Part shown: piece after piece, positions 1 to 10,594 of the stretch
How the letters are laid out: each line of letters opens with the position of its first letter
How positions within the stretch are numbered: the stretch's first letter is position 1
Source of the DNA: Roseiflexaceae bacterium
GTDB lineage: Bacteria; Chloroflexota; Chloroflexia; Chloroflexales; Roseiflexaceae
Assembly (NCBI GenBank): GCA_043754595.1
Contig: JAYUUK010000335.1
Span: 1-10,594 of the forward strand
Direction of reading: 5' to 3'
DNA: 10,594 nt
The notes under the pieces: generated by a model
What the model was told of the DNA's origin: nothing
The model's input: only the letters and a program-made list of their open reading frames with translations
Databases searched by the model: none
Made by a program: the position numbers and the translations under genes

Positions 1-113
1 CGCAGCGGGGGCACTGGGGGCTGCGCAAGCCCCCGAATCCTCCTCCGGTTCGTCGCCGAGGCGCGCGCAGCGCAGCGGGGGCACGGGGGCGCAGCCCCCG
101 AATCCTCCTCCCC
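1..113. repeat. Two tandem imperfect ~45-bp direct repeats (about 1-46 and 71-113). Each contains a GGGGGC...GCCCCC hairpin followed by AATCCTCCTCC. They lie immediately 3' of the minus-strand membrane-protein gene and may continue beyond the window start.
   Basis: Seen directly: 'cgcagcgggggcac(t)gggggc(tgc)gca(a)gcccccgaatcctcctcc' occurs twice with small indels. The inverted GGGGGC/GCCCCC arms sit inside each copy. The repeat may continue upstream of position 1. Confidence 0.6.
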
Positions 114-5102: not shown

Positions 5103-5415
5103 GCATCATCCTGACGTTGTGGGGAAGGTGGGTCTACGGCAAGCTGCGGCGCGGGGATCCGCGATTTTGGCCGGAGCATCCGCGATGAGACGCCAGCGCC
5201 GCCCACCTCCTCGCGCTCCGCCGCCACCTATCTCCTCGCGATCCACTCCCACACATCGACCGACTGATGACCGACTGATGATCGATCGATGACCGATACC
5301 CGGCTGCGCGCCGCTGTTCACCAAAATCAGATTGCTACCATGGCGCGCGCCACCCTCCACGACGGATCGCTACAGTTTCAGCATGCTATCGCACACCGAT
5401 GCGCTAAACTGTTTC

Positions 5416-5444
5416 TTGCAACGCTGTCATGCTTGCGATATAAT
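5416..5444 (+). promoter_or_regulatory. Near-consensus sigma70-type promoter: -35 TTGCAA (5416-5421), a 17-bp spacer, and -10 TATAAT (5439-5444). It would give a ~125-nt leader for the giant TPR/motif-array gene.
   Basis: Read directly as 'TTGCAAcgctgtcatgcttgcgaTATAAT'. The orientation and position are appropriate for the downstream gene at 5574, whose RBS GGGAGGA lies at 5562-5568. Confidence 0.5.
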
Positions 5445-5573: not shown

Positions 5574-8500
5574 ATGGCAAGCATGAGCCTGCAAGCGGCC
5601 CAGAATCAAGCTCGGCAATGGCTCGAGACGGGCGAGGCGGAGCGCGCCGCTGGCTTCGCTCAGCACATGCTCGAGCAGACACCGGACAATCTGGAGACCG
5701 CGCGCATTCTCGGCGAGGCGTATCTCAAGACCGGAGATCTCGATCGGGCCCAACAGACGCTGGAACGCGTCATCGCGATGGACCCCGAGCATATCCCGGC
5801 GCACGTCCTCCTTGGGATGCTCGCCGAGCGCCGTGGTCAGCTCAAGCAGGCGATCGCCGAGTATGAGCAGGCCCTCGAAATCAAGCCGGACTATCCTGAG
5901 CTGCGTAGCCAGCTCCTTCGGCTCTACACCGAAGCCTGGGGTAGCGAGCACGCGCAGCTGCGCCTCAGCCGCGCCGGCCTCGCACGCCTCTACATCAAAG
6001 GCCATATGCTGCCGCAGGCGATCGCTGAGTTCCGTCAGGTCATCGCCGAACAGCCGTCACGCTACGATGCGCGGGTGGCGCTCGCTCGCGCGCTGTGGAA
6101 GAATGGTCAAGAGCCGGAGGCCGCCGAGACCAGCCGCAGCATCATCGCCGATCACCCGCAGTCGCTGATCGCCAACTTGATCCTCGGCTATCAGGCGCTC
6201 AACGCCGGCCGCGCCGAAGGCACCAAACTCTGGCAGACCGCCAGCGCGATCGACCCTGAGCAGGGGGCGGCGGCTGAGCTGTTCGAAGATCTGCCGGCCG
6301 CGCCGCCGATGCCGAGCATCCCCGATTGGGACGAGCAGGCCTGGCACGCGCGCAACGCCGCTCCGCCGCCAGAGACGATGCCGCCGACCCGCGCGGTTGA
6401 GCAGGTGACGCCAGCCGCTATTCCAGCCACGCTCGCCGCACCCGTGGCTGCGCCGCCCGCCCCGGCCAGGCAGATCGCGCCGCCAGGCGATGACTTTCTC
6501 GCTAGCCTGCTGGCGCTCGACAGCGCGCCAAAACTACCGCCGACGCCCGCCCCAATCGTGGACGAGCCACCATCCGAGCCGGATGGCATGCTGCCGTTCT
6601 CGCTCAACGATCTCGAGATCGGTGGCGAGCTGGCCCACGATCCAGCGCCCGAGGCGACTCAGCCGCCGCTCTCGCTCGATGACCTCGGCGTCTCCAATGC
6701 ACAGATCGCCGGCCTCGAACAGAGCGATCGGACGCTGGCTACTCCTGCACCCGAGATCTCCGAGACGCAGCCATTCTCGCTCAGCGAGCTCGGCCTCTCC
6801 GATGATGAGATCGCCGGGCTCGAAAGCGTCAATGTGCCGGCCGCTCAAAACCCTGCCGCGCCGGTCGAGCCCAGCGCTCCAGCGTCGGCCGAACCGATGT
6901 CGATCGAAGAGATGAAGCCCTTCTCGTTCGCCGACCTCGGGCTGTCCGATGATGAGATCGCGGCTCTTGAGCAGGGCGGCGTGGCCGATACGTCCGCTGT
7001 CAGCCAGCCGATCGAAAGCTTCGCGCCGTTCTCGCTTGACGATCTCGACGATGTTCCATCTGCGCGGGCGCCGGGCCGCACCGCCGATGACGATGATGCT
7101 GATGCCTCAGGCCTCAACCTGACGCCGTTCTCGCTCGACGATCTCGATTTTAGCGCCATCGACAGCGCCGCCAACCGGCCAACCTCGCTTCCCTCGTCGC
7201 TCCAGTCTTTCTCGCTCGATGATCTCCCGCCCGATCGGCCACGTACGAGCAATCTCGCAGATGACGATACCGCCGATCTACCCCCAATGGGCGGTGCCGA
7301 GCTCGAGCAGCCGCTGATGTTTGGCTGGCACGAGCCGCCGCAAAAAGATGAGCCGGATTTCGCCAAGACGCTCCGCGCTCGCCCGCCGGTCAACGATGAG
7401 AATGTCTTTGCGAGGCTCCAGGAGCAGCGCAAAAATATCCAACTGCCGCCGAGCGACTTGCCCGATGTGTCGATCGCTCCCGAGGATCATCTCGGGATGT
7501 TCTCGATGGACGATGTTTCGCTCCGCGATGATAGTGAGGGCGCTGCCGCAACCCTTGACCAAGTCCTTTTACCACCCCCGGCTGCTGCGCCGCTCGCCGA
7601 TATCGCCAGCGAAGATATGGCTGGGGCGATCTCCGCAGGTGAGATCCAGCCGTTCTCCTTCGCCGACCTCGGCCTCTTCGATGAAGAGATCGCCGCGCTC
7701 GGTATGGGTCCGGCGCAGAACGCACAATCGCCCGCGATGCCGGATCTCACTCCTCCGGTCGCAGCAATACCAGCCGCGCCCGAGCCGGCCGCAACAGCGC
7801 CGACCGCTGATGTCGCTGTGCCAGCGCCTGAGCCGGTCGTAGCAGCGCCGGCCGCACCTGAGCCGGCCGCGCCCGCCTTCAGCCACCACGAGCCGGAGCC
7901 AGAGGTGGAGAACTTGCACGATGCCATCGCCTCGGGCGAGATCCAGCCGTTCTCCTTTGCCGATCTCGGTCTCTCCGATGAGGAGATCGCCGCGCTCGGC
8001 CTCGGTGCTGCCCCACAGGCCGCACCTGAGCCAGCCATCGCTGCGTCAGCGCCGGCCGCACCTGAGCCAGCCATCAGCCACCACGAGCCGGAGCCAGAGG
8101 TGGAGAACTTGCAGGATGCCATCGCCTCGGGCGAGATCCAGCCGTTCTCGTTCGCCGACCTCGGCCTCTCCGATGAGGAGATCGCCGCGCTCGGCCTCGG
8201 TGCCGCCCCACAGGCCGCGCCAGAGCCAGCTGCTCAACCGGCACCAGCCGCACAAGCTGCGCTGGAGAATGAGGAAGATCTGTCGACCTTCGAGCTCGAC
8301 CTGCCCACATGGGATATGAGCGAGCTCGGCGGCGATAGCACAGCGGCCACATCGGGTGCCGAGCGCACCAACGATAATCTGCCCGCCCCATTCTCGCTCG
8401 CCGATATCGGCCTCGGCGATGAGCCAGACACCGATCACGATGACCGCAGCGATAGACTTAGCCTGACCGAAGCCGAGCTCGCCGATCTCGGCACCGGTGG

Positions 8501-9566
8501 CGACCTGGCGTGGGCTAACCAGCGGCCAGCGCCCACCATCGGCGCGACGCCCGCCGCATCCACACCGGCGCAGCTCTCGCCAGAGGAGGCCCTGCTGGCA
8601 AAAGGCCGCGCCCAGGGGTTCGTCGATATCAAAGATATCATCGCCGCTGTTGATAACCCGAACGAGGAGGTCGATCGGATCGAGGAGCTCGGCCGGCTGA
8701 TCCACAGCCAGCAGATCGCCATCCACGATGGCGATGAGGTCATCGATATGGACGCTGAGTATGAGGAGCCGGCCGCCCAGGAACCAGTCGCGCCACCGGC
8801 GGCACCAGAGACTCCTGAGATGACGCCATTCTCGCTCTACGAGCTCGGTCTATCCGATGCAGAGATCGAGTCGCTCGGCCTCGCTGACGCCACATCATCC
8901 GAGCCGACGCAGACATCATCTAATGTGCCGTTCTCGCTCGGCGATCTCGGCCTGGACGATTTCGCGATGCCGTCGCCCGCTGTCCCGAGCTCGCCGGTGA
9001 CCCCAAGCTCGTCATCTGAGGTTTTCTCACTGGAAGATCTCATTGAGGCGGATCTCCCGGTGTTCACGCAGCCTGCTGCGCCGACACCGCCCGTCCCGCC
9101 GGCACCACCCGCCGCCCCGGTCACCGTGCCGCCAGCGGCCGAGCGGCCAGTCACGCAGCCGCTGCCGCCACTGCCGGCCGCGCCCCAGCCAGTAGTAGCA
9201 CAGATGCCGGTCGCGCCCCAGCCCGCTGCGCCTGCCGAGGCGGCGATCGAAGACCCGGCTCTCTCTGGCTTTTTCTCGCAGCTCGCGCAAGACCCCGCCA
9301 ACCATGTGCTCCGGCTCGCTGTCGCACGCTTCAGCGGCCAGACCGGGCGTGTGGATGTTGCCGTGCAGCAATACAAAGATCTCATCCGCCGCAATGCCAT
9401 GCTCGATGATGTCATCGTCGATATCCAGGATATCATCGATGCGATGGAAGGCCAGCCAGAGAGCGATATCCGCAAGATGCATCGCACTCTCGGCGATGCC
9501 TATTCCAGACAAGGCCGCATCAACGAAGCTATGTCCGAGTATAGCTGGCCGATAGGGAGATCATGA
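5574..9566 (+). CDS. Large (1330 aa) multidomain scaffold-like protein. It has N-terminal TPR repeats (aa ~1-230) and a ~900-aa Pro/Ala/Glu/Asp-rich low-complexity region bearing ~17 copies of an acidic 'PFS[LF]xDLGLSDDEIAALG' short motif. An internal segment resembles sigma-70 region 1.1 (nt ~8571-8770), and the C-terminus is helical and TPR-like.
   Basis: ATG 5574 with SD GGGAGGA (5562-5568) and stop TGA 9564-9566. Codon usage (GC3-rich) is consistent across 4 kb. TPR-like helices include 'ARILGEAYLKTGDLDRAQQTLERVIAMDPEH' and 'AHVLLGMLAERRGQLKQAIAEYEQALEIKPDY'. Motif copies include 'TQPFSLSELGLSDDEIAGLES', 'MKPFSFADLGLSDDEIAALEQ', 'IQPFSFADLGLSDEEIAALGLG' (three copies), 'MTPFSLYELGLSDAEIESLGLAD' and 'NVPFSLGDLGLDDFAMP'. 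The overlapping minus-strand ORFs are GC-frame artefacts. Confidence 0.85.
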   Translation: MASMSLQAAQNQARQWLETGEAERAAGFAQHMLEQTPDNLETARILGEAYLKTGDLDRAQQTLERVIAMDPEHIPAHVLLGMLAERRGQLKQAIAEYEQALEIKPDYPELRSQLLRLYTEAWGSEHAQLRLSRAGLARLYIKGHMLPQAIAEFRQVIAEQPSRYDARVALARALWKNGQEPEAAETSRSIIADHPQSLIANLILGYQALNAGRAEGTKLWQTASAIDPEQGAAAELFEDLPAAPPMPSIPDWDEQAWHARNAAPPPETMPPTRAVEQVTPAAIPATLAAPVAAPPAPARQIAPPGDDFLASLLALDSAPKLPPTPAPIVDEPPSEPDGMLPFSLNDLEIGGELAHDPAPEATQPPLSLDDLGVSNAQIAGLEQSDRTLATPAPEISETQPFSLSELGLSDDEIAGLESVNVPAAQNPAAPVEPSAPASAEPMSIEEMKPFSFADLGLSDDEIAALEQGGVADTSAVSQPIESFAPFSLDDLDDVPSARAPGRTADDDDADASGLNLTPFSLDDLDFSAIDSAANRPTSLPSSLQSFSLDDLPPDRPRTSNLADDDTADLPPMGGAELEQPLMFGWHEPPQKDEPDFAKTLRARPPVNDENVFARLQEQRKNIQLPPSDLPDVSIAPEDHLGMFSMDDVSLRDDSEGAAATLDQVLLPPPAAAPLADIASEDMAGAISAGEIQPFSFADLGLFDEEIAALGMGPAQNAQSPAMPDLTPPVAAIPAAPEPAATAPTADVAVPAPEPVVAAPAAPEPAAPAFSHHEPEPEVENLHDAIASGEIQPFSFADLGLSDEEIAALGLGAAPQAAPEPAIAASAPAAPEPAISHHEPEPEVENLQDAIASGEIQPFSFADLGLSDEEIAALGLGAAPQAAPEPAAQPAPAAQAALENEEDLSTFELDLPTWDMSELGGDSTAATSGAERTNDNLPAPFSLADIGLGDEPDTDHDDRSDRLSLTEAELADLGTGGDLAWANQRPAPTIGATPAASTPAQLSPEEALLAKGRAQGFVDIKDIIAAVDNPNEEVDRIEELGRLIHSQQIAIHDGDEVIDMDAEYEEPAAQEPVAPPAAPETPEMTPFSLYELGLSDAEIESLGLADATSSEPTQTSSNVPFSLGDLGLDDFAMPSPAVPSSPVTPSSSSEVFSLEDLIEADLPVFTQPAAPTPPVPPAPPAAPVTVPPAAERPVTQPLPPLPAAPQPVVAQMPVAPQPAAPAEAAIEDPALSGFFSQLAQDPANHVLRLAVARFSGQTGRVDVAVQQYKDLIRRNAMLDDVIVDIQDIIDAMEGQPESDIRKMHRTLGDAYSRQGRINEAMSEYSWPIGRS
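7854..8235 (+). repeat. Intragenic tandem duplication: two ~195-204-nt units (~65 aa each) that are more than 90% identical at the nucleotide level. A more diverged third copy lies upstream (about 7630-7740).
   Basis: 'agccaccacgagccggagccagaggtggagaacttgca[c/g]gatgccatcgcctcgggcgagatccagccgttctc...' starts at both 7881 and 8076. The translated units are 'SHHEPEPEVENL[H/Q]DAIASGEIQPFSFADLGLSDEEIAALGLGAAPQAAPEPA'. Confidence 0.85.
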
Positions 9567-9937
9567 CAACTTACGGAAAAGCGAACATCATGCGGCGGAT
9601 CGTCGAAGATCTCATCCGTATCGATGGAGTGATCGGCAGCCTGCTCGTCGGCCGCGACGGATTGGTCGTCGCGAGCACCCTGATGGACGATGAAGACGCC
9701 GAGGTGCTCGGCGCGCGCGCTGCCGCCGTATTCGGCGAGATCGATAAGGCCACCAGCATCCTCGGCGTGGGCAAGCTGGTAGACTCGATCATTGATGCCG
9801 AGCAGGGGTCGATCTTACTGCTCGAGAGCCGCGATCTCATCTTGGTTGTTCTCACTCAACGTATGGTAAACTTGGGTCTGGTGAAAATGGAAATGCGTCG
9901 CGCCGCCAAGCGTGTCGGCGAGGCTGTGGCCGCCTGA
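9563..9937 (+). CDS. Roadblock/LC7 domain protein (MglB-like), 124 aa.
   Basis: 'MRRIVEDLIRIDGVIGSLLVGRDGLVVASTLMDDEDAEVLGARAAAVFGEIDKATSILGVGKLVDSIIDAEQGSILLLESRDLILVVLT' has the typical Roadblock/LC7 pattern (vxGvxgaxLvxxDGLxiAs...e..aa..a......a...lg.g.l..i.ie...g.i.i). ATG 9563 overlaps the upstream stop as ATGA (AGGGAGA at 9554-9560, spacing 2). An alternative start is the ATG at 9590 (MRRIVEDL...). Confidence 0.8.
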   Translation: MTTYGKANIMRRIVEDLIRIDGVIGSLLVGRDGLVVASTLMDDEDAEVLGARAAAVFGEIDKATSILGVGKLVDSIIDAEQGSILLLESRDLILVVLTQRMVNLGLVKMEMRRAAKRVGEAVAA

Positions 9938-9980
9938 CGCGCTGCGATTACGCCGGCGCACGAAAACGAAGAGGGAGTTC

Positions 9981-10430
9981 ATGGAGCGTTCGCTGATTAT
10001 TCTCAAGCCAGACGCCATCCAGCGCGGGCTTGTCGGTCCGATTTTGACGCGCCTCGAACAGCGCGGTCTCAAGCTCGTCGGGTTGAAGCTATCACAGATC
10101 GATGAGTCGCTGGCGCGCAAGCACTACGGCGTCCACGAGGGCAAGCCGTTCTTCGATGGATTGGTCGCGTATATTGTATCGGGGCCGGTTGTAGTGCTCA
10201 CCGTCACTGGGAAAAATGTGATCGAAACGGTGCGGGCGATGGTCGGCGCGACCAACCCGGTGAAGGCGGCCCCCGGAACCATCCGCGGCGATTTCGCCGT
10301 GGAGATCGGGCGCAATCTGATCCACGCGTCGGACTCGCCGGAGAATGGTGAGGCGGAAATCGGACTGTTCTTCGATGCAGGCGAGCTAGTGACGATGGAT
10401 CGCAGCAGCGACCGCTGGATCTACGAGTAA
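9981..10430 (+). CDS. ndk: Nucleoside-diphosphate kinase, 149 aa.
   Basis: 'MERSLIILKPDAIQRGLVGPILTRLEQRGLKLVGLKL...HASDSPENGEAEIGLFF' is a canonical NDK, including the active-site His region 'NLIHASDS'. SD GAGGGAG (9971-9977) lies upstream of ATG 9981. The six-frame ORF start at 9912 is an upstream in-frame extension without an RBS. Stop TAA 10428-10430. The gap to the Roadblock gene is only 43 nt. Confidence 0.95.
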   Translation: MERSLIILKPDAIQRGLVGPILTRLEQRGLKLVGLKLSQIDESLARKHYGVHEGKPFFDGLVAYIVSGPVVVLTVTGKNVIETVRAMVGATNPVKAAPGTIRGDFAVEIGRNLIHASDSPENGEAEIGLFFDAGELVTMDRSSDRWIYE

Positions 10431-10454
10431 TTACTAGACTCTAAAAAGCAGAAA

Positions 10455-10488
10455 CGCCCGGCGAGCAGTGCTCGCCGGGCGTCTTGTT
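10455..10488. terminator. Bidirectional intrinsic terminator with a perfect 11-bp stem CGCCCGGCGAG / CTCGCCGGGCG and a 5-nt loop CAGTG. It is followed by TCTTGTT on the plus strand and by TTTCTGCTTTTT on the minus strand.
   Basis: Read directly from the sequence. It sits 25 nt after the ndk stop and immediately after the stop (TAA, plus 10487-10489) of the convergent minus-strand ORF. Confidence 0.75.
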
Positions 10489-10594
10489 ATGGGGTAGATA
10501 GGCTTTGTGGACCTGGATCGGTGGGCGTCGGCGTGTCGGTCGGCGTCTCCGTGCGCGTCGGCGTCTCGGTCGGCGTGTCGGTGGGCGTCGGCGT
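10487..10594 (-). CDS. C-terminal fragment (last ~35 codons) of a convergent gene that continues beyond the window. It encodes a Thr-Pro repeat linker, '...TPTPTDTPTETPTRTETPTDTPTPTDPGPQSLSTP*'.
   Basis: The minus-strand frame is open from the window edge to TAA (plus 10487-10489). A period-6 DNA repeat (10521-10594) translates to a (T-P/T-D/T-E)n linker of the kind common in secreted or cell-surface proteins. The fragment is too short to appear in the ORF track. Confidence 0.4.
   Translation of the reverse strand, partial: TPTPTDTPTETPTRTETPTDTPTPTDPGPQSLSTP
10521..10594. repeat. Hexanucleotide-periodic microsatellite-like repeat (GTSGGC/GTCKSN)n, at least 12 units, truncated by the window end.
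   Basis: 'gtgggc gtcggc gtgtcg gtcggc gtctcc gtgcgc gtcggc gtctcg gtcggc gtgtcg gtgggc gtcggc' was read directly. It is coding on the minus strand (see the partial CDS). Confidence 0.7.

Follow-up and report, generated by a model that had tools for sequence, protein, structure and literature searches.

Does a near-identical tandem duplication inside a bacterial gene mark a repeat that is still expanding, or can two such similar units be old? The question is raised by a 10,594-nt contig from a Roseiflexaceae bacterium (JAYUUK010000335.1, assembly GCA_043754595.1; the whole stretch is hereafter called the window), in which a gene for a large, acidic scaffold protein contains two consecutive 195-bp units. 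The initial annotation had read these units as the product of a very recent slipped-strand or unequal recombination event, and had proposed that their number varies between strains and tunes the valency of the scaffold in the manner of a contingency locus. The reading that we consider likely is a different one: an old, in-frame extra copy of a peptide module that is selectively maintained, within a scaffold family that routinely gains and loses whole modules, and with no fast switch involved.

A tandem duplication in frame

The features on which this reading depends are the following.

5574..9566, plus strand: scaffold gene, encoding a 1330-aa acidic protein (open reading frame [ORF] and translation; the sole long plus-strand ORF noted)
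7626..7714, plus strand: older, diverged module copy U (AGEIQPFSFADLGLFDEEIAALGMG / AISAGEIQPFSFADLGLFDEEIAALGMG), 83-85% identical to the A and B modules over 89 nt
7845..8039, plus strand: unit A, 65 codons, with its motif at 7935-8006 (Tandem Repeats Finder [TRF], repeat search and alignment)
8040..8234, plus strand: unit B, 65 codons, with its motif at 8130-8201 and a core that differs from that of A at 11 positions
7851..7868, plus strand: 18-nt microrepeat GCCGCACCTGAGCCGGCC (AAPEPA) at the left border of unit A (exact match; chance expectation 0.01)
8019..8072, plus strand: A/B junction, consisting of 18-mer, ATCGCTGCGTCAGCGCCG and 18-mer (AAPEPA-IAASAP-AAPEPA)

TRF reports a single array at 7871..8230 (period 195, 1.8 copies, 93% matches, 0% indels, score 650), and a repeat search pairs 7871-8035 with 8066-8230 at 94% identity over 165 ungapped nt. 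In a gapped local alignment, the similarity between A and B runs left to approximately 7820 versus 8019 and right to approximately 8231, with one 9-nt and two 3-nt indels. Eleven substitutions separate the units within the 165-nt in-frame core, and the longest exact run that they share is 40 nt. The original description of a handful of substitutions and one 9-nt indel was therefore essentially right, with the two 3-nt indels to be added. The period of 195 nt corresponds to 65 codons, and both units are read in the same frame as the rest of ORF 5574..9566; the copies lie head to tail with significant similarity, their period is a multiple of three and they share a single reading frame, all of which defines a coding tandem repeat. 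As annotated, each unit carries one motif, since GEIQPFSFADLGLSDEEIAALGLG is present once in A and once in B, and an older, more diverged copy (U) lies upstream. The conserved module spans about 35 aa (E-V-E-N-L-x-D-A-I-A-S-G-E-I-Q-P-F-S-F-A-D-L-G-L-S-D-E-E-I-A-A-L-G-L-G; module peptide EVENLHDAIASGEIQPFSFADLGLSDEEIAALGLG) and is followed by a Pro/Ala linker.

A short repeat delimits the units. The 18-mer GCCGCACCTGAGCCRGCC, which encodes AAPEPA, occurs exactly at 7851, 8019 and 8055, bracketing unit A and standing twice at the junction, where TRF also detects an array with a period of 36 (8018..8091). Because this 18-mer alone is found four times against 0.01 expected by chance, chance is excluded as the source of the duplication. 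An assembly artefact is excluded because an independent assembly contains exactly the same two units. That assembly (L001; ENA ERZ27272740) is an 83.8-kb MEGAHIT (k141) contig from a 99.7% identical strain; together with the window and a third sequence, also 99.7% identical (L002; ENA ERZ28593433 scaffold_27), it makes up our same-species sample, the three being the sole members of a 90% cluster. TRF, the repeat search, the gapped alignment and L001 all agree that the near-identical 195-bp tandem duplication is real.

A related concern is that the two-copy state, rather than the duplication as such, was produced by assembly, either through the collapse of more units to two or, less likely, through the false doubling of a single unit. 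The window is a whole 10.6-kb contig with both ends in repeats, and L002 is not assembled through the junction, both of which would fit such an origin. However, the independent NCBI and ENA (MEGAHIT, k141) assemblies yield identical A and B units, and with 11 differing sites and no exact run above 40 nt, k-mers of at least 41 separate A from B. A false doubling, moreover, would not yield nine synonymous differences. We regard an assembly origin of the two-copy state as highly improbable.

Age of the duplication and selection on its units

Within the 165-nt core, nine of the differences between A and B are synonymous and two are non-synonymous (F/I and H/Q). Nei-Gojobori estimates give a proportion of synonymous differences (pS) of 0.226, a synonymous divergence (dS) of 0.27, a non-synonymous divergence (dN) of 0.016 and a dN/dS of approximately 0.06; the corresponding values for copy U against A and B are a dS of 0.46-0.65 and a dN of 0.09. 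Across the whole gene, by comparison, the window and L001 differ at 6 of 3993 sites (pS 0.003). On the synonymous scale, the duplication is estimated to be approximately 75-fold older than the split of the sampled strains. Since nine of the 11 differences are synonymous, and since dS between units is 0.27 against a pS of 0.003 between strains, the duplication is not very recent, as had been proposed; it predates the divergence of the sampled strains by far. The near-identity of the A and B peptides reflects purifying selection, not youth.

What remains of the proposed slipped-strand or unequal recombination is its outcome, a true tandem duplication of one motif unit with exact 18-mers at its borders; its recency does not stand. 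We infer that homologous recombination, either unequal or slipped, took place between the flanking AAPEPA-coding 18-mers and created the extra unit. The duplication occurred long before the sampled strains diverged, and purifying selection has since held the peptides alike while synonymous sites drifted.

The alternative of a slipped-strand duplication of very recent date, still growing and shrinking, with a strain-variable unit number and contingency-like tuning, could draw on the 94% nucleotide identity of the units, on the exact coincidence of the break in L002 with the A/B junction, where an extra 36-nt repeat is found, and on whole-unit indels between near-identical relatives. In addition to the synonymous divergence described above, several features oppose it. 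Both units are identical in the three assemblies as far as these are resolved, and an in-frame period of 195 nt with two copies and a maximum exact run of 40 nt is a poor substrate for frequent slippage. Neither a transmembrane (TM) segment nor a signal peptide was found in the scaffold (maximum 19-aa Kyte-Doolittle hydropathy 1.14), which is predicted to be cytoplasmic, and a cytoplasmic protein is under no obvious diversifying pressure. In a population of Roseiflexus RS-1, finally, the length of the protein is constant. Taken together, these observations make ongoing expansion very unlikely.

The contingency-like character proposed for the repeat can be assessed directly. Contingency loci, as described by Moxon and colleagues, are built of long, perfect tracts with a unit of 1 to about 9 nt, and length changes in these tracts frequently shift the reading frame or promoter spacing. 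The scaffold gene resembles them in that a repeat mediates length change within a gene. It differs in its unit of 195 nt, far outside the 1-9 nt range of perfect tracts, and in having 1.8 imperfect copies with 93-94% identity that are the same in the strains sampled. Switching on and off by frameshift or promoter spacing also failed as a candidate: every repeat period found in the gene or in an orthologue is divisible by three, and the additional copy in L002 measures 36 nt. The contingency-locus reading thus fails on the size of the unit, on its reading frame, on the number of copies and on their sameness in the strains sampled, and the in-frame period, the two copies at 94% and a protein with no signal peptide or TM segment all run counter to the original proposal.

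Unit number within the species and across the family

If unit number were variable in this species, strains should differ in the count of the 195-nt unit. No such variation was seen in the three assemblies: the window and L001 both have two units, L001 shows zero differences across window positions 7752-8752, and L002 is interrupted at the junction by a 100-N scaffold gap. This gap sits exactly between window positions 8072 and 8073. Immediately to its left, L002 carries one further exact 36-nt copy, ATCGCTGCGTCAGCGCCG plus GCCGCACCTGAGCCAGCC, encoding IAASAP-AAPEPA (12 codons), such that its positions 9783-9873 consist of three 18-mers and two spacers followed by the 100-N gap (the whole region, 9783-9973, corresponds approximately to window 8019-8072/8073). 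With the extra copy, L002 contains 90 nt of perfect 36-nt periodicity. In such a sequence, k-mers shorter than about 54 would form a cycle, which would account for the break in the assembly, and for this reason we judge the extra copy to be probably real. In this species, accordingly, the linker repeat of 36 nt between A and B is the only element found to vary at present, to the exclusion of the 195-nt unit. The gene caller assigned to L002 merely a 488-aa C-terminal fragment (P0121), a consequence of the break into the gap. No further strains of the species turned up when JGI metagenome contigs were scanned twice with exact or degenerate DNA patterns, and a search with the unit region alone as protein query matched four distant fragments and no allele from the species.

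Across the wider family, the picture is one of turnover. Homologues occur throughout Chloroflexia, in Roseiflexaceae, Chloroflexaceae and Herpetosiphonaceae (including Roseiflexus, Roseiflexaceae, Kouleothrix, Chloroflexus, Oscillochloris, Viridilinea, Chloroploca and Herpetosiphon); they are full-length proteins of 933-1757 aa annotated simply as "tetratricopeptide repeat protein". Beyond self matches, the closest relative shows approximately 45% identity. Among the 120 best homologues, core-motif counts range from 7 to 24 per protein, and in most the best internal 40-aa window is identical at 36 or more of 40 positions, with periods of 29-123 aa overall compared with 54-65 aa here. Most of the 82 loci fetched have in-frame DNA tandem repeats inside the gene (69-465 nt, 1.8-10.4 copies, 72-100% matches), and at least one tandem repeat with a period of 60 nt or more is present in 60 sequences, a few of these repeats lying outside the gene; the pattern is also seen in isolates and long-read genomes. 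The G-x-[IVL]-QPF type of motif occurs 0 to 8 times per protein over its whole length, and the central sub-array, in which A and B lie, comprises two to four units in the lineages examined.

Units carry residues specific to their lineage, such as ASGTIQPF...EEEVAAL (P0030), NSGQVQPF...ALEGS (P0013), QGALA[AS]GEVQPF (P0036) and, in the window, AIASGEIQPF. For 29 of 49 units, the nearest neighbor lies within the same protein. This greater resemblance within than across lineages indicates concerted evolution. The central and other sub-arrays gain, lose and homogenize units lineage by lineage, in a process combining concerted and birth-and-death evolution. Motif valency consequently differs between lineages, and probably between some strains, through changes over evolutionary time and without the reversibility of a switch.

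Direct comparisons of close relatives are consistent with the gain and loss of whole modules. Among the homologues, pairs with 97-100% identity across their aligned residues are set apart by clean indels of 29-118 aa, and one to three complete motifs are contained in each. Several of these affect the orthologue of the duplicated unit itself ("ASGEVQPFSFADLGLSEEEIAALGL"): 57 aa in P0015/P0043 and in P0061/P0077 and P0061/P0193, 114 aa (two units) in P0031/P0059, and 53 aa in P0073/P0084. P0136/P0087 is another near-identical pair separated by a whole-unit indel, and R. castenholzii DSM 13941 (complete genome, 1445 aa) is three 37-aa units apart from a 97% identical lineage (1334 aa, two assemblies). 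Counting units in orthologues, the check suggested with the initial annotation, thus reveals a labile motif number. Variable valency holds between lineages, since the count is not the same in all orthologues, and does not extend to the sampled strains of this species. In our assessment, unit number certainly changes between lineages, probably changes between some strains and is stable within populations.

A number of observations weigh against our reading and qualify it. The dating of A and B assumes no gene conversion between the units; because conversion would make them look younger, not older, the conclusion that the duplication is not recent is conservative. With three assemblies, one of them broken at the repeat, a third unit may be hidden in L002, or a strain with one or three units may exist. 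In Roseiflexus RS-1, the 1534-aa allele of the complete genome recurs in more than 12 assemblies made independently, with no more than 3 aa of difference and down to 96.7% identity, and this constancy of length argues for stability within a population. The Herpetosiphon aurantiacus proteins P0118 (complete genome, 1757 aa) and P0131 (JGI/IMG, 1655 aa) are 100% identical apart from one 102-aa block of two 51-aa units, a difference that looks like assembly collapse, laboratory-scale unit loss being the other candidate. At least 11 public Chloroflexia contigs end within arrays (L019, L028, L029, L037, L039, L043, L054, L055, L056, L060 and L072). Much of the between-strain variation seen in relatives comes from short-read metagenome assemblies, in which near-identical units are collapsible; the hybrid unit left by a genuine unequal-crossover deletion is the same as that left by an assembler collapse, and the two cannot be distinguished from sequence alone. 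Short-read collapse could explain part of the unit-number differences among relatives.

In an alternative scenario, the units are ancient and their number fixed, their likeness being kept by gene conversion and constraint and the copy differences in relatives being assembly collapse. High inter-unit identity with lineage-specific residues in every lineage would fit this scenario, as would the stable RS-1 lengths, the collapse-like Herpetosiphon case and the many contigs that end in arrays. It does not accommodate the two to four central units and 7-24 total motifs found across lineages, a range that includes complete or long-read genomes (R. castenholzii DSM 13941, RS-1, H. aurantiacus and a chromosome-level MFD metagenome-assembled genome [MAG]). 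Repeat periods that differ between lineages require the birth and death of units, and the differences between A and B are evenly spread, without a conversion tract. We therefore consider a fixed unit number unlikely and favor the maintenance of an old extra module within a family of changing module number.

Long-period repeats within genes are known from yeast FLO1-type adhesins and from the bacterial proteins alpha C/Rib, SasG/Aap and Esp, and unit-number variation in the intragenic tandem repeats of FLO1-type genes was reportedly documented by Verstrepen et al. in 2005. The scaffold gene resembles these in its in-frame, head-to-tail units of tens to hundreds of nt with high nucleotide identity, in the gain and loss of units by unequal recombination with homogenization within lineages, and in a quantitative trait of the protein that would scale with the number of units. 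The known examples differ in being surface exposed and in typically having many near-perfect copies, whereas the scaffold is predicted to be cytoplasmic and has two units at 94% identity and a dS of 0.27, with no within-species unit variation seen. A literature search on intragenic repeats found nothing specific to the scaffold family. Coding tandem-repeat evolution in a multivalent scaffold is a known kind of phenomenon, and the host gene family is uncharacterized.

In-frame unit duplication and concerted evolution are well known in repeat-rich disordered proteins, and the duplication itself is of little weight. Of broader use is the family, which constitutes a natural series of one scaffold with 7 to 24 copies of a ~35-aa module and could serve to study the effect of valency on a bacterial hub. 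The gene is also a recurrent assembly breakpoint and collapse hazard in Chloroflexia bins, and for this reason its length in short-read MAGs is not trustworthy.

The scaffold protein and its conserved gene neighborhood

The scaffold consists of an N-terminal tetratricopeptide repeat (TPR) domain, a Pro/Ala/Asp/Glu-rich disordered region, a mini-domain resembling region 1.1 of sigma-70 factors and a C-terminal TPR-like domain.

5574..6263, plus strand: N-terminal TPR domain, aa 1-230 (several Pfam TPR families above gathering score; most conserved block of the alignment)
8589..8765, plus strand: sigma-70 region-1.1-like mini-domain, aa 1006-1064 (Pfam PF03979 and AlphaFold2 [AF2] fold)
9231..9545, plus strand: C-terminal helical TPR-like domain, approximately aa 1220-1324 (six helices; AF2 predicted local distance difference test [pLDDT] 93-98)

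Within aa 1-230, the matches include TPR_19 (88.4 bits against a gathering score of 25, 3.9e-25), TPR_16 (63.2 against 32.7) and TPR_2 (56.2 against 27). NCBIfam adds only generic TPR matches below cut-off to the scaffold. The PFS[LF]xDLGL motif is present in about 13 copies, and most copies of the longer form PFS[LF]xDLGLSxEEIAxL fall within aa 260-1000, the Pro/Ala/Asp/Glu-rich region, which has a net charge of -111. No curated family was found for the motif; a Pfam scan of the units alone gave sub-threshold NNH7, TonB_N and XYPPX matches. The DUF1127 and lamin-tail matches listed for some homologues are probably motif look-alikes.

Structure modeling with AF2 covered aa 740-1330 and used a 67-sequence alignment. 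Each duplicated module is predicted to form two short helices (pLDDT 82-85), and the linkers between them score below 50. Amid this otherwise disordered acidic protein, the mini-domain is modeled with high pLDDT (92-95) as a winged-helix-like fold with the order H-E-H-H-E-E. PF03979 matches aa 1006-1064 at 21.1 bits, against a gathering score of 22.5 (E 3e-4), and precomputed PF03979 matches exist in most homologues; a phmmer match of the mini-domain to the RpoD N-terminus (7xya_F) is weak (E 0.24). One homologue fragment is named [quoted passage not shown] by NCBI. For the C-terminal domain, the best Foldseek hits in the Protein Data Bank (PDB) are consensus TPR and MamA, with weak support (E ~1e-2).

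The scaffold lies in a run of plus-strand genes.

5416..5444, plus strand: promoter-like site TTGCAA-17-TATAAT, 5' of the scaffold gene (a consensus match at 10/12 positions, no more)
9563..9937, plus strand: Roadblock/LC7 gene (Pfam Robl_LC7, PF03259, 54.5 bits against a gathering score of 23)
9981..10430, plus strand: nucleoside diphosphate kinase (NDK) gene (Pfam NDK, 8.7e-53; gene call in L001)
10452-10484 (core 10454..10482), listed on the plus strand and readable on both: GC-rich palindromic hairpin after NDK with a 13-15 bp stem (sequence scan)

The scaffold stop and the Roadblock start overlap as ATGA, preceded by a GGGAG Shine-Dalgarno sequence, an arrangement that predicts translational coupling of the two genes. 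Roadblock proteins in the PDB match the product of 9563..9937 at 2.6e-11. The Roadblock gene is directly downstream of the scaffold in each of the 45 sequences long enough to show it (the window, L001 and L002 plus 42 further loci), and NDK follows it in 38 of the 45. Amino acid identity across loci is 73-87% for Roadblock versus 33-50% for the scaffold. By gene order, the scaffold-Roadblock/LC7-NDK trio is conserved across Chloroflexia. The upstream PatA_N and Band_7 (SPFH) genes were dropped as members of the system, as they are neighbors in same-species loci only and not in other lineages. The hairpin after NDK is likely a bidirectional terminator between convergent genes. The strictly conserved coupling of the scaffold to Roadblock/LC7 suggests that filamentous, gliding Chloroflexia possess a regulatory module that is as yet unstudied.

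Two types of scaffold offer points of comparison. The polar hubs HubP, which in Vibrio has acidic 46-aa repeats, and FimV are thought to recruit several clients. Like the protein described here, they combine a large size and a very acidic composition with a TPR-like helical end domain and with imperfect tandem repeats that vary in number between species. They differ in that the Chloroflexia scaffold has no LysM domain (Pfam) or TM segment and its repeat motif is unrelated. The FimV C-terminal model TIGR03504 gave a single match (E 0.013, 15.5 bits against a cut-off of 30.65), at aa 48-72 in the N-terminal TPR domain. With no LysM, no TM segment and no C-terminal TIGR03504 match, membership in the HubP/FimV group was rejected.

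The second comparison is with RomR and its partners MglC and MglB in Myxococcus xanthus. There, as may be the case here, a disordered Pro-rich and acidic scaffold acts with a Roadblock/LC7 protein, the parallel on our side being gene coupling. The Chloroflexia scaffold differs in having neither a receiver domain nor detectable sequence similarity to RomR, and no MglA-like GTPase is encoded in the window. A short helical peptide of RomR (residues 371-420), itself a polarity scaffold, binds the Roadblock protein MglC (PMC12719032). The most likely ligand of the modules would be the Roadblock/LC7 protein or the scaffold's own TPR domains. We suggest that the modules are conditionally folding docking peptides, as their modeled helices would allow, and that their number sets the valency of a hub working with the coupled Roadblock/LC7 protein.

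More tentatively, we speculate that the family represents an undescribed, Chloroflexia-wide cytoplasmic hub, composed of TPR domain, docking array, sigma-1.1-like domain, second docking array and C-terminal TPR-like domain, and encoded in an operon with Roadblock/LC7 and NDK. In this hub, module number, set by unit duplication and deletion, might tune the clustering of Roadblock dimers or of the scaffold's own TPR domains, making valency evolvable in a polarity, motility or condensate-forming system of filamentous gliding bacteria; the 36-nt junction repeat might be its currently unstable part. We hold this fuller proposal to be possible and, as a whole, somewhat doubtful.

Other repeats occur outside the scaffold gene. 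In the 545-nt intergenic region 5' of it, an 11-nt tandem repeat (GACCGACTGAT, 3.5 copies, 85% matches) occupies window positions 5258-5296, approximately 120 nt before the promoter-like site at 5416-5444. An Rfam scan of the whole window detected no RNA family. At the left end, window 1-111 (L001 1-148; L002 1692-1875) contains a GC-rich 65-nt tandem element (GCGCAGCGGGGGCAC..GGGGGC..GCAGCCCCCGAATCCTCCTCC) with an internal inverted repeat. It is present in two to three copies, its period is not a multiple of three and the window contig begins inside it; it looks like a repetitive extragenic palindromic (REP)-like intergenic hairpin repeat. At the right end, positions 10518-10594 lie inside a GTCGGCGTC-rich tandem repeat with periods of 12, 18 and 30 that belongs to a 473-aa minus-strand gene seen in L001. 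Since both ends of the contig fall inside repeats, both are repeat-induced assembly breaks.

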